A stretch of DNA of 63,769 bases, filler included, from Octopus bimaculoides (GCF_001194135.2; 4 parts of 4 records of this genome joined end to end with filler, not necessarily neighbours in it), one strand, 5' to 3'. Numbered from the whole stretch's first letter, positions 12,301 to 63,586 are shown. Numbers and translations: made by a program. Notes: generated from the letters alone by a model not told the origin.

Positions 12301-14630
12301 AAAAAAAATTCATATATTTTGTACTTTTATCCTCTAACTTTTTTACTTCAACTGAGGAAAGTATGTTTGGAAACAATATAAAGAAAATGATCTCTCAAAG
12401 CCGGAGTGTTCATATATAAATAAATGTAATGTGGAAGCAAATTGTGTCCATAATTTCAACTATGCTTGGTCACATGTTTCAGTGCTCTAACTATAATAAC
12501 TAATGGAAAAAGTCTGTTTAAATATTTCATGTTTTTATCTTTTGTAGGGAACTCTCTCGATTTATTGCTGCTGGTCGACTTCATTGCAAAATTGACAAGG
12601 TTGGAGGAATTGTAGAAACTAACAGGCCTGATAGTAAAAATTGGCAGTATCAGGTTAGTTTTGCTTTAGAAATCTTCTTAATTAAAAAACAAAAAGGATG
12701 TTTATGTACTCGAGCTCACATATCTATGTTGTAATGGTTATTATAACTTAACATTTTGAAGACAGTCTGTTATATTTATAGACAAAATAATTTACTTATT
12801 TCAACAATAACAAAACATGTAGGTACACATACCAAGGAAAGGGTTTTGTACCTTACCTTCTCCTACCAACACTCAATAAAGCCTTCAAAGTTACTACAAA
12901 TGTTTGGTGGTCTTACATATAAAGCCATCAAAACTGCATTTTAAAGTTTGGGCTTCTCTTTCAGGGCTGTAAAGTACTTTGTTTTGATTAATTGCTAATC
13001 TTATTTGTCAGAGTTCTTTCGTCACCATACTGTAACCTCTTCAGCGACTTTCAGTTCCACATGTCTACTCGTGTCCTGCCTATTCCAAAAATGGAATAGG
13101 CAGGACAAGAGTAGACATGTGGAACAAAAAGTCATTGAAGAGGTCACTGTGGTAACGGAAGAACTTTGACAAATAAACTAAATATAATATTAATGCTAAA
13201 ATGAAGATCAAATCAATAGTGTGTGTATTTAATCAGTTAAAGATGACCATCCCCAAGTATAACAGTTTCTGTTTGTACACATGATTTCACATCAAGAATC
13301 TTACAAAACAAATACATAAACATTTTATACAATTTTTATGATTTTTAATAACTTTTGTCTTCTAATGCTTGTAAGATATCTGTACACTTCCTAGGCCTTG
13401 CCCTTTTGCCCAATCTGTCTCCATCAAGCCTTCTCCTCTTCTTATTCATCTGTTCGTCACCATTCTATGACATTTTCAGTTAATCATAAAAGCAGAATCT
13501 GCACATATTTCATTCTTTTTTTTTTTCCGTTACTAGTTACCTCTCTCTTTCCCTGGAAATTCACTCCTCATTCTCAATATCATATCATTCTCAATACTTT
13601 CTCACATCTGACACTACTTTATTAAAATTATATAAACTAATTTTTGTTAATAATACAGGTTGTGTTGTTGTAAAGATTGTTTGCCAACATAACATGACAG
13701 TCCTGGTTTAGGACGAATGTTGCTGTAATTTAGCCCCAGGAGACATCGTCTCCAGCTGGCTATACGACACGATCTGTGTCCTTACATTTTTGAACGAGAG
13801 AATCTAGCTCAAAACAACATCTGTGTATCTCACGTTGTTAGATTTAAAAAAAAATAGTTTTCTAATTTATAAATCAGTGACTAGTTGTCACTTTGAAAAC
13901 TATATATTTCGAACAGGAATTTGGCTGTGTCACCTCTAGCTGAACAATTATTGTGCTGATGAAGAGAAATAACCCAGAAATTGCGATACACAGATATTGT
14001 TTTGAGCTGAGTGGGGGTGTTAGATTCCCATGTTCGAAAATATAAGGACATAGATCATATCATATAGCCAGCTGGAGATGATGTCTCCTGGGGCTAAATT
14101 ACAGCAACATTCGTCCTAAACCAGGACTGCCATGTTATGTTGGTAAACAATCTTTACTACAAAGTACTGTTGCTGAATATCTCACATTGTGAGATTTAAA
14201 AGATAGTAATTTTCTAACAGGTTGTGTTATTTATAATTTCTTTTTTTTTTATTTTGTTTACCACTGAAAATCAGAATTGTAAGAGGTGCTGGACTTGTCT
14301 GATTCTTTTTCATTTGCTGTCATCAGAAATCCCTACTCACGTATAATGATTTCATTTCTTTTCTACAACATATTTATATATCAGTAACAGCATAAAAACA
14401 TTTTATTGATTACTTGAAACTTTGATCCATATGTATGTGAACATAACTGGTGTATATTTTACAAATTTTACTGCATTTGTGATTTCACTTATTTTTATAT
14501 TTCCTCATCTGTATTCAATTATACACATCACTAATATTTCGCTTATATTTATCCATTTTAGGCTACAATCAGGCAAGGAGATATTCTTTTAAATAGAGTC
14601 CAGAAACTGAGCCGTGTTATCAACATATGA
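3235..14630 (+). CDS. PSMD6: 26S proteasome non-ATPase regulatory subunit 6 (Rpn7), 8 coding exons, 390 aa
   Basis: join(3235-3379,8947-9155,9586-9731,9895-10114,11406-11514,12018-12186,12548-12653,14562-14630) = 1173 nt. All introns GT-AG and phases close. Recognisable Rpn7 sequence: [70 protein letters not shown]. Confidence 0.98.
6137..6910. repeat. Inverted pair of a ~150-bp dispersed repeat (6137-6285 and 6762-6910) in intron 1
   Basis: ctgctagaatagcagctaaatct...aaatcacacc...ctttgaccatagg faces cctatgatcaaagatg...ggtgtgatttgag...gcttctatttctaac. Other family members near 3900-4050, 8570-8700, 41390 and 53450-53590. Confidence 0.55.
8040..8310 (+). mobile_element. Decayed RTE-type 3' end / SINE with (GAT)n tail
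   Basis: aaaatgcacccagtatgctctgtaaagtagttggtgataagaagagcatccagctgtaaaa...ccagcatggaaaatggatagatgatgat. Confidence 0.6.
8947..9155 (+). CDS. PSMD6: PSMD6 coding exon 2 (209 nt)
   Basis: tttag acceptor; (N)[27 protein letters not shown]...[28 protein letters not shown]; donor GTGAAT at 9156. Confidence 0.96.
9586..9731 (+). CDS. PSMD6: PSMD6 coding exon 3 (146 nt)
   Basis: ttttcag acceptor; [48 protein letters not shown]; donor GTAAGT at 9732. Confidence 0.96.
9895..10114 (+). CDS. PSMD6: PSMD6 coding exon 4 (220 nt)
   Basis: tttgcag acceptor; [50 protein letters not shown]...RPKLREQ; donor GTAAGT at 10115. Confidence 0.97.
10245..10390 (+). mobile_element. tRNA-derived head of SINE family A, CpG-decayed
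   Basis: atggctatgtggttaagaggtt...agattcaatatcactgcatagcatcttgggcaagtatcttctac. Aligns to the copies at 46140 and 63205. Confidence 0.65.
10745..10910 (+). mobile_element. Partial RTE-type/SINE repeat with internal direct repeats
   Basis: Three copies of (gc)tggtg(g)cacgtaaaaagcac; same family as 1670-1895. Confidence 0.6.
11406..11514 (+). CDS. PSMD6: PSMD6 coding exon 5 (109 nt)
   Basis: cttacag acceptor; [36 protein letters not shown]; donor GTAAGG at 11515. Confidence 0.96.
12018..12186 (+). CDS. PSMD6: PSMD6 coding exon 6 (169 nt)
   Basis: tttgcag acceptor; [56 protein letters not shown]; donor GTAAGT at 12187. Confidence 0.97.
12548..12653 (+). CDS. PSMD6: PSMD6 coding exon 7 (106 nt)
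   Basis: tttgtag acceptor; [35 protein letters not shown]; donor GTTAGT at 12654. Confidence 0.96.
13007..13048 (-). ncRNA. Minimal type I hammerhead ribozyme, intact core
   Basis: GUCG-CUGAAGA-g-GUUAC(aguaug)GUGAC-GAAA-G(aa)C-U-C-UGAC. Stem I 4 bp, stem II 5 bp, CUC triplet. Confidence 0.75.
13131..13170 (+). ncRNA. Degenerate hammerhead (sense to PSMD6 pre-mRNA)
   Basis: GUCA-UUGAAGA-g-GUCAC(ugug)GUAAC-GGAA-GAACUU-UGAC. C3>U, GAAA>GGAA and one stem II mismatch. Confidence 0.6.
13667..14216. mobile_element. 550-bp inverted-repeat element with a central hammerhead (Penelope-like, non-autonomous)
   Basis: Arms 13668-13829 and 13985-14158. 12-bp direct repeat ACAGGTTGTGTT at 13655-13666 and 14217-14228 (candidate target-site duplication). 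Confidence 0.7.
13951..13993 (+). ncRNA. Type I hammerhead with decayed stem II
   Basis: UUGUG-CUGAUGA-a-GAG(aaauaa)CCC-a-GAAA-UU(gc)GA-U-A-CACAG. Stem I 5 bp, intact CUGAUGA and GAAA, stem II mismatched. Confidence 0.6.
14562..14630 (+). CDS. PSMD6: PSMD6 coding exon 8 (69 nt including TGA)
   Basis: ttttag acceptor; [22 protein letters not shown]. Confidence 0.96.
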   Translation, partial: ATIRQGDILLNRVQKLSRVINI

Positions 14631-15179
14631 GAATAGAAGAACCAGTGTTTCCAATAGTCAGTTTGCTTCAGTTCTTACTTTCATAGGATGATGTACATAT
14701 AATGCAGTGACTATATGAAAGAGATATTTACATTAAGAATAATTTAAGAAATCCAGCTTAAATTATTTCCAGCCATATCATGAAAAGATGTGATGGATCC
14801 CACTGGAAAGAATTCTTTAGCCCACTCTCTCTTTGAAATACCATGAACTATTACCATTCTGATTAACTGCTTCACCATTTTAACATGACTGATCAATTAT
14901 TTTCTGTAACCATAAGATAAATTTGAACACTTCAAGTTTTTGTCAGTCTTGCTGTAGATTAAGAGCTTGAGTATTTGTGGATACTATTAGCAATTTTTGT
15001 ACTGCAACCAGAACTAAAACAAGGGATTGGTTAACTTTTTTTTGTTTTGTTTTTGTTTTTTTTTGCTGGGATTCATTTACATCTATTGCAGTCATTTATA
15101 CCTTCTGTAATCATTTTCATGTCTATCAATTAACTTCTTGACTGATAATTGACTGTTATTAGAACCATTTTACTAATTA

Positions 15180-15185
15180 AATAAA
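15180..15185 (+). terminator. PSMD6: Candidate polyadenylation signal of PSMD6 (3' UTR about 550 nt)
   Basis: AATAAA followed about 35 nt later by GT/T-rich ttgttgtgttttattta. Confidence 0.55.
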
Positions 15186-15314
15186 AATGACTCAATTATT
15201 TACTCTTTTCACAAAAACCTTTGTTGTGTTTTATTTATCATGTCTGTTATCTTTTTTAATTACCTTTGAACCTTGAACCTCACAGAGGCCTTTGGCAATA
15301 AGCTATGCTTAAGA

Positions 15315-63204: not shown

Positions 63205-63365
63205 GACGTGTGGTAAGAAGTTTGCTTCCCAATTTCATGGTTCCACGTTCAATCCTACTAAATGGTAACTTGGGCGAGTGTTTTCTGCTGCCGCCTCGGA
63301 CCGACTAAAGCGTTGTGAGCGGATCTGGTAGAGAGAAACCGAAAGAAGCCCGTCGTATACACGCA
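63205..63365 (+). mobile_element. tRNA-derived head of SINE family A
   Basis: gtgtggtaagaagtttgcttccc...ggttccacgttcaatcc...gaaagaagcccgtcgtata. Confidence 0.7.
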
Positions 63366-63481
63366 CATACATATACATATTATATTTAAGTGTCGGGTAT
63401 GTTCATTGTCTATGTCTACCTGGCGTGTCATCCACGGTATTCATAAATAGTATATATTTAACGAGATACCCCATATAACAT

Positions 63482-63586
63482 CCCCTGCGGAGATGCGTCT
63501 GCATCGTGCGATGCACCACACCCAGTTGTGCAGTATCCCACCCGCGAGGGATCGATGCAGGATGCGTCGAAACGATCGTTGTGAAC
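63482..63586 (+). ncRNA. Hammerhead-like fold with CUGCGGA core and branched stem II
   Basis: CUGCGGA(63485-91)-GAUGC...CUGCAUCG[two hairpins]CGAUGCAG...GCGUC-GAAA(63569-72)-CG(au)CG-U-U. AATAAA follows at 63587. Stem I is weak (3 of 4 pairs). Confidence 0.5.

Follow-up and report, generated by a model that had tools for sequence, protein, structure and literature searches.

Minimal hammerhead ribozymes occur in the pseudo-long terminal repeats (pseudo-LTRs) of metazoan Penelope-like elements (PLEs), and here we compare with them a set of hammerhead-bearing repeats in a 63,769-nucleotide stretch of Octopus bimaculoides DNA (GCF_001194135.2; hereafter the window), which consists of four parts of four records joined end to end with filler. 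The survey by Cervera and de la Pena (2014, PMC4209133) describes the PLE motifs as having an extra base, a palindromic stem III and many families per genome; "dual" minimal hammerheads, located on opposite strands and 100-700 bp from each other, are also reported there, as is a variant with U3-A8. PLE insertions consist, according to Craig et al. (2021, PMC8557442), of an inverted 5'-truncated copy next to a direct copy, with a tail at one end, a (TA)n bias and a variable target duplication. Both strands of an AT-rich target are cut and then extended by an active PLE protein, which begins reverse transcription at two sites close together; the tail is what lies between these sites (Frangieh et al. 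2024, PMC11167929). In the anole PLE of that study, no RNA-seq ends were found at the hammerhead site, cleavage took place only with protein, and it was not needed for insertion in vitro. Animal non-LTR retrozymes, as described by Cervera and de la Pena (2020, PMC7229834), are 170-400 nt long and non-coding; their hammerheads are canonical and their circular RNA is abundant. They have been proposed to be non-autonomous PLE derivatives in a preprint that reports cleavage of one of nine dimers (Li, Clavereau and Pollet 2026, 10.64898/2026.07.22.740005).

Several of the octopus repeats are foldbacks that look like miniature inverted-repeat transposable elements (MITEs). We estimate at roughly 80% the probability that the elements are short truncated repeat copies with minimal type I hammerheads, which likely stem from several PLE families as their 3' ends (pseudo-LTRs) or as non-autonomous derivatives, and that the foldbacks are likely one-off insertion products and not the moving unit.

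Hammerhead motifs in the window

The hammerhead motifs in the window are real and mostly decayed. Our strict type I descriptor required a C3-G8 or G3-C8 core with no more than one core mismatch, a G10.1-C11.1 pair and at least 3 bp in each of stems I and II; 60 trinucleotide-preserving shuffles in 1-kb blocks served as a control. Six matches were obtained (13044, 24373, 44264 and 56024 on the minus strand, 24453 and 37309 on the plus strand) against a shuffle mean of 0.03 and a maximum of 1. Two of them had zero mismatches and a canonical core, against none in the shuffles. A looser descriptor, written post hoc after seeing the motifs at 13.95, 23.2 and 63.5 kb, allows an extra base before GAAA, a long stem II and a core insertion. 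Each of these three motifs scored 6 with it, and six real matches reached at least 6, compared to a mean of 0.67 and a maximum of 2 in 12 shuffles; one of the six, at 24415, was spurious. Rfam returned no hammerhead in the window at the gathering score, none among 150 of the 247 weak matches listed and none in two narrow searches, and the long hairpins drew only weak microRNA matches there. A covariance model made from five motifs gave, beyond its own inputs, nothing in the window but a weak candidate at 13442-13484 (minus strand, E 0.027), a decayed hammerhead-like motif resembling the one at 13.0 kb, which we did not count.

An N3-UGAN-N8-A core with a paired 3-8 position, GAAA, UH and stems I and II are present in 13.0L, 44.2 and 24.3L, and in 13.95 with an extra A; the core is unbroken in all four. 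The minimal type I motif 13.0L (13007-13048, minus strand) has the core CUGAAGA, an extra G, a 5-bp stem II and a predicted cut at 13011/13010. The core of 44.2 (44227-44267, minus strand) is CUGAUGA, next to a 4-bp stem II and a weak 3-bp stem I. CUGAUGA is also found in 13.95 (13952-13992, plus strand), where a 3-bp stem II has an extra A on each side, stem III is palindromic and the cut is predicted at 13988/13989; the copy in the window shows one stem II mismatch and the additional A before GAAA. Finally, 24.3L (24330-24380, minus strand) combines a G3-C8 core, GUGAACA, with an extra G, stems I and II of 7 and 5 bp, respectively, a palindromic stem III and U17.

The remaining copies carry one or two core lesions each: C3U and A13G in the decayed 13.1R (13131-13170, plus strand), G12A in 24.4R (24446-24496, plus strand), which also has the G3-C8 core, A6U in 37.3 (37304-37339, plus strand), G8A in 56.0 (55988-56028, minus strand) and A6C in the decayed 63.5 (63481-63584, plus strand). 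The 37.3 motif has an extra A and a stem III with no loop beyond a CG palindrome; 63.5 has a long branched stem II, a palindromic stem III and a broken stem I. Two hammerhead-derived motifs, one in each arm of the foldback at 22.9 kb, have in common the eight-base non-canonical core AUAGAUGA, where CUGAUGA would be expected. In 23.0L (23011-23075, minus strand) stem II is decayed, and 23.2R (23167-23231, plus strand) has a 6-bp stem I, a stem II with 11 of 12 bp, a near-palindromic stem III and GUC. All motifs are directed toward the outer or 3' end of their repeat, which lies 10-230 nt away where it is known.

This base-by-base reading agrees with the original prediction on the one extra nucleotide after A9 at five loci and on the tiny or palindromic stem III, and the motifs of the three foldbacks it named (13.0, 22.9 and 24.2 kb) do point outwards. 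Hammerheads had been placed at seven sites, and the folds there do exceed chance; an intact core is found in 4 of the 10 motifs at these sites (13.0L, 13.95, 44.2 and 24.3L), and the rest have core lesions. The claim that the stems are unrelated fails, since 13.0 and 24.3, together with 56.0, which is new, are homologous. These three have stem I, the extra G and stem II in common (local alignment z 7.7, 7.9 and 4.4; 55 pairs tested). In their alignment, 55 of 60 cells are paired, compared to 23-53% in slid controls, with only three independent loci, and three pairs are changed on both sides: 3-8, one in stem II and one in stem III. Judged from sequence likeness, the window holds six hammerhead lineages in more than six, differing repeat bodies. 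A degenerate pattern of the three motifs also matched 2 viral-contig and 101 metagenome-contig loci, which we treated as chance. Of these 103 matches, 7 passed a loose fold filter and none had a short palindromic stem III plus a matching stem I; nearly all lay in GC-rich DNA, and about half lacked the 3-8 pair.

Inserted copies and their families

Family-level evidence came from the reads of two DNA runs (flank depth about 51 and 45) and two RNA-seq runs mapped on 12800-14400, that is, for 13.0 and 13.95, and from copies within the window. About 6% of each RNA run was read, and small circles are poorly captured by such libraries. Copy numbers were taken from summed contig depth relative to the flank and are a rough guide only.

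The 13.95 insertion (13655-14228) is bounded by a 12-bp target duplication (13655-13666 and 14217-14228); a shared 12-mer was found in 11 of 20,000 random flank pairs, which gives the chance level for this duplication. Between the two duplicates come first an inverted copy without a tail (13665-13832) and a piece of the tail, then upstream sequence, the hammerhead and the 3' region, and last a 55-nt tail (14163-14217, plus strand), which is present only on the direct copy and is the fixed 3' end of the family. A partial tandem extends over 13826-14217 with a 352-nt period. The motif is part of a fourth foldback (13665-14162, around 13.7 kb), additional to the three named before.

The 13.95 family comprises about 10^4 copies. 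Depth relative to the flank was 16,000-17,000-fold at 14144, compared to 7,000-fold over the tail and 1,100-3,000-fold over the hammerhead, declining from the 3' end inwards as a gradient of 5' truncation, and the flanks of the copies turn variable immediately past 14217. Joints within the family were called at 80% likeness with short sides (21-92 nt). Among the 15 listed, with 164 more beyond, 10 led from an inverted arm to a direct copy; all were at different places, 9 were present in both DNA runs, and most had single-copy depth. A head-to-tail joint, 14198>13858 (341 nt), was also present in both DNA runs. The repeat unit is about 345 nt, arranged head to tail, and no copy with two tandem hammerheads was seen. 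Several joints of other copies start at 14021-14024, about 33 nt downstream of the predicted cut, a truncation hot spot.

Two changes among the 40 of 188 difference rows listed for the mapped families bear on pairing. At 13965, A>G supplies the missing G-C pair of stem II and accounts for 51% and 48% of the DNA depth and 85-97% of the RNA reads. At 13982, T>C makes the stem III palindrome complete, with shares of 89% and 83% in the DNA depth and 38-54% among the RNA reads. Both defects of the motif in the window are private to that copy or subfamily. The majority letters of the family restore stem II and the stem III palindrome, and the stems are thus conserved. A>G and T>C sites were commoner in the RNA runs (33-37 and 36-40, compared to 21 and 16), and we considered A-to-I editing. 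The listed sites were equally frequent in both read orientations (at 14079, 224/282 and 229/280), indicating a mix of subfamilies, and editing was rejected. No RNA ends were found at the predicted NUH sites of 13.0 or 13.95 in the two RNA-seq runs, where the original prediction had proposed to map them. Read starts do pile up at 13807 in one run, but this position is 18 nt away from the one equivalent to the cut site, and we left the pile out of account.

The foldback at 13.0 kb (13001-13176) consists of arms 13001-13087 and 13092-13176, 88% alike and separated by a 4-nt spacer. Its body is present in roughly 20-40 copies and its centre is covered at about 19 copies, whereas a 36-nt ribozyme core (13009-13044) reaches 700-800-fold depth. 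The excess belongs to a sibling family of roughly 700-800 copies, which matches 13.0 only over this core and diverges at both edges. Read from loose ends, its stem I has 2+2 bp with a bulge. Among the rows listed, the common differences of the sibling family concern loop II, N7 and a single position of stem II, 13034 A>G, which turns a U-G pair into C-G at 96% of DNA depth. Near this foldback, 13232-13320 is the terminal part of a different repeat, whose depth exceeds that of the flank about 2000-4000 times. This repeat stops at a fixed point, 13320, and its depth decreases to the left, which makes it probably the 3' end of a retroelement; 13178-13240 belongs to a family of about 50-60 copies.

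Three further foldbacks lie in or beside (TA)n. The one at 24.2 kb (24190-24580) has arms 24246-24405 and 24421-24580, 94% alike, TA runs on both sides and a tail of about 55 nt (24190-24245) on the left arm only. Its centre (24386-24449) contains two copies of a 26-28 nt palindrome, possibly a snap-back trace from joining. The foldback at 34.1 kb (34097-34337), a fifth one beyond those named before, has arms 96% alike and represents the 3' part of the 13.95 lineage without its hammerhead. A tail of about 41 nt, homologous to the 13.95 tail, is found on its right arm only, and the tail-less arms at 13.7 and 34.1 kb end at the homologous base. The foldback at 22.9 kb (22923-23318) lies in (TA)n and has arms about 85% alike. 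Foldback transcripts are predicted to form hairpins of -126 to -301 kcal/mol with 74-89% of their bases paired. If the arms began identical and a rate of 0.0036 per million years (PMC13282606) holds, the foldback insertions are roughly 5-20 million years old. Apart from these, an inverted pair at 1944-2331, 79% alike, belongs to an abundant repeat with other copies near 38.2, 46.4, 50.8-51.1, 53.0 and 54.9 kb, and no hammerhead was found in it.

The 37.3 element (37304-37431, plus strand) comprises its hammerhead and a 3' end joined to (TA)n. Two 5'-truncated copies, both new, were found: one at 23362-23472 (plus strand), between microsatellites and cut inside the hammerhead, and one at 45212-45328 (minus strand), beginning at the GAAA half of the motif. 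The three copies have a common 3' part and different 5' cut points. In total, (TA)n flanks were seen at 22.9, 23.36, 24.2, 34.1, 37.3 and 45.3 kb.

Origin of the foldbacks

The original prediction took the elements for PLE- or retrozyme-type retroelement ends and not DNA MITEs. Its core inference is supported by the tails found on one end only, at 13.7 (55 nt), 24.2 (55 nt) and 34.1 kb (41 nt), by the (TA)n flanks and the 12-bp duplication, and by the junctions, fixed 3' end and head-to-tail unit of the 13.95 family. Additionally, 5' truncation is variable and accompanied by partial tandem and inverted copies, as seen in the 13.95 joints and depth gradient and in the copies of the 37.3 family. 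The proposed linkage to Penelope reverse transcriptase (RT) or GIY-YIG open reading frames (ORFs) was not found in the parts of the window scanned.

We hypothesize the following origin. Two things are directly visible: every hammerhead faces outwards on its arm, and the 13.95 family has a single fixed 3' end but many different inner junctions. By analogy with the active PLE protein (PMC11167929), an RT/GIY-YIG protein acting in trans would nick both strands of an AT-rich target and prime cDNA synthesis on either strand, beginning at two positions that lie some 40-55 nt from each other. Two 5'-truncated cDNAs joined head to head would then leave an inverted repeat with a tail on one arm and a variable centre. 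In the parent element, the hammerhead may cleave as a dimer, via the palindromic stem III in tandem transcripts, probably slowly or protein-assisted. In a foldback transcript, the motif is predicted to pair with its own antisense, and the copies would be silent and would since have decayed neutrally. We rejected the idea that the inverted pair itself acts as the ribozyme dimer: with its two motifs on opposite strands, one transcript holds a motif and its antisense copy in a hairpin and not a cleaving dimer. Predicted homodimer folds differed from the hammerhead dimer and were not used.

Several observations weigh against a PLE origin. No PLE RT or GIY-YIG domain was found in 150 of the 212 stop-free ORFs of at least 55 aa, nor in a six-frame read-through of 47.5-63.7 kb and of three short stretches, including those upstream of 44.2 and 37.3; PLE membership thus rests on non-coding signs. 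RNA reads on 13.0 and 13.95 were about equal on both strands, with no pile of starts or ends at 13010/13011 or 13988/13989. The tails, at 41-55 nt, are longer than the usually quoted 30-40 bp, the foldback at 22.9 kb shows no one-sided tail and has a non-canonical core in both arms, and 13.0 has no clear target duplication and an ambiguous tail. Furthermore, the hammerhead fold with stems I and II was the predicted minimum-energy fold in only one of eight motifs folded alone (24.3L), the family data are limited to 13.0 and 13.95, and the 13.95 joints were called at the likeness and side lengths given above. A 99-aa frame upstream of 44.2, faintly resembling a GIY-YIG end, was rejected as it had no credible homologue (best atlas score 0.85, one repetitive match with E 6e-4, no Pfam match).

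The 13.95 family, and perhaps others, could instead be a self-standing non-LTR retrozyme. Transcripts of its tandem units of about 345 nt would then be cleaved at the hammerhead and closed into circles, and PLE proteins would put them back into the genome. The one difference from a PLE scar is that cleavage and a circular RNA would still be at work today. The 352-nt period in the window and the 341-nt joint in both DNA runs are in line with such units, which also fall within the 170-400 nt given in PMC7229834, and RNA reads pass beyond the tail into the start of a following unit (189 and 147 of them at 14217). One edge of the 4-nt ambiguous inverted-arm junction (13825/13826) even coincides with the predicted cut site, but no other inverted-arm end does so among the 15 joints listed. 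RNA depth is, however, low for 10^4 copies, strand-symmetric and without ends at the cut site, and the 13.95 motif is minimal, with a 3-bp stem II, and not canonical. We consider a retrozyme unlikely.

MITEs are non-autonomous DNA transposons with terminal inverted repeats (TIRs). That the foldbacks are MITEs or Foldback-type elements, moved by cut and paste, which captured or arose from hammerhead fragments, appears very improbable to us. Their long terminal inverted repeats, their short length and the TA flanks at 22.9, 24.2 and 34.1 kb would suit such elements, and the coverage of the 13.0 centre at about 19 copies leaves room for a small palindromic family there. Fixed TIR ends, on the other hand, are difficult to reconcile with one-sided tails, variable centres and lengths, a gradient of 5' truncation, solo and tandem copies and a 12-bp duplication. 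Neither the 13.95 family nor the foldbacks at 24.2 and 34.1 kb have fixed TIR-bounded ends, a uniform length and a short target-site duplication, the DNA-transposon signature that the original prediction had named as evidence against itself.

Inversions are also produced by twin priming of long interspersed nuclear elements (LINEs); twin priming on a single RNA inverts only the 5' part. The hammerhead-bearing RNAs could accordingly resemble short interspersed nuclear elements (SINEs) moved by an ordinary LINE (RTE, L1-Tx1 or R4) through twin-priming inversions, and not by a PLE. LINE fragments are present in the window (with a weak RVT_1 match at 31243-31536) and a PLE ORF was not found in the parts scanned. 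Yet the elements have no poly(A) or short-repeat 3' tail of their own, both foldback arms duplicate the same 3' region, and a tail with two endpoints has been described as unique to PLEs (PMC11167929). We give this explanation hardly any credence and retain PLE insertion as the likely origin.

The G3-C8 core, the setting and known systems

The minimum-energy fold of 24.3L shows hammerhead stems I and II (z -2.4). The G3-C8 swap is found in both arms of the 24.2 foldback, which are copies of one template, and is a candidate for the family state. An engineered C3G/G8C change partly rescues a PLE hammerhead (PMC11167929). In the available parts of the sources, natural 3-8 covariation is reported as U3-A8 (PMC3088659; PMC4209133), and G3-C8 is mentioned only as an engineered variant (PMC3884650). 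Our literature search, whose coverage of core-variant surveys is incomplete, found no natural G3-C8 hammerhead core in print. We tentatively propose, as a conjecture and not as the probable outcome, that the 24.2 family is a natural, active G3-C8 hammerhead beside the homologous C3-G8 families (13.0, 56.0) and, more broadly, that a large share of the palindromic "unknown" repeats of octopus are two-ended PLE insertion scars. If true, evolution itself would have supplied direct evidence of selection for cleavage in PLE hammerheads, in the form of a double compensatory change at a pair relevant only to the cleaving fold; whether such selection exists is in doubt since insertion in vitro can do without cleavage. 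Being homologous, the motifs with C3-G8 and with G3-C8 offer a natural comparison for studying if catalysis is what maintains PLE hammerheads, and the G3-C8 family is the one lead worth a bench test.

The DNA of the window is of animal type, AT-rich and interspersed with many microsatellites and assembly gaps. The host gene of the 13.0 and 13.95 insertions is PSMD6/RPN7, with eight exons over 3235-14627 (plus strand), one of which is 100% identical to the O. bimaculoides protein; both insertions lie in its last intron (12660-14549). Decayed LINE-like fragments occur at 1-482 and 1043-1450 and at 30.7-31.9, 47-49.6, 51.8-52.4 and 59.7-61.2 kb; their translations read as RTE-, CR1-, L1-Tx1- and R4-like, and only 31243-31536 has a weak RVT_1 match. 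A frame at 55270-55972 (plus strand) resembles by reading a decayed Tc1/mariner transposase, with no Pfam match, and the 56.0 hammerhead element interrupts its 3' end. Near-identical direct duplications beside N gaps, at 21623-21946 (157 nt, 100%) and 60995-61194 (79 nt, 97%), are probably assembly artefacts.

Annotators had been expected to label such elements MITEs. This is not borne out at genome scale: in the curated library of the O. vulgaris repeat study (PMC13282606), PLEs account for 191 Mb (6.83%, 190 families) and MITEs for 0.19 Mb. The study gives 15% of the genome as "unknown" and 1279 families as "unclassified SINE", and its supplement makes no mention of ribozymes. For the giant squid, 235 Rfam hammerheads are counted in PMC6962438. 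Our literature search found no published work on octopus PLE hammerheads or on their foldbacks being mistaken for MITEs.

The octopus foldbacks are like MITEs in being short, non-coding inverted repeats with TA-rich flanks and high copy number. Unlike MITEs, they have no fixed pair of ends and no constant length or centre, and they possess a one-sided tail and a hammerhead. Short palindromic octopus repeats can thus be retroelement scars, and an outward-pointing hammerhead, a one-sided tail and a variable centre together provide a test that separates scars from MITEs. The 13.95 family resembles retrozymes in its short, non-coding unit of about 345 nt with one type I hammerhead and low GC, and a partial tandem and one joint suggest a head-to-tail order; the octopus motifs differ in being minimal, in lying mostly in dispersed and inverted copies, and in having no dedicated RNA in the two RNA-seq runs.

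The closest likeness is to the PLE minimal hammerheads of PMC4209133. The octopus motifs have an unpaired base between A9 and G10.1, a G10.1-C11.1 pair, a short stem I and a palindromic or absent stem III, U17 is common, and many unlike families occur per genome, mostly as solo truncated copies. An extra A before GAAA, as in 13.95, is found in 1 of the 56 PLE representatives of Fig. S3, a set which includes, unlike ours, no G3-C8 core, and no cephalopod; the published families also differ in that no ORF link has been shown for the octopus ones. The foldbacks, for their part, agree with the PLE insertions described in PMC11167929 and PMC8557442 in the inverted truncated copy, the tail at one end, the (TA)n and the lack of RNA ends at the hammerhead. 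They differ from them in tail length and in that both copies are reduced to 90-350 nt, hence their MITE look. Overall, the kind of element, the motif and the inverted arrangement have all been published, and for specialists the locus is a good new example and not a surprise; what it adds to the known systems are the octopus families and a natural G3-C8 core.

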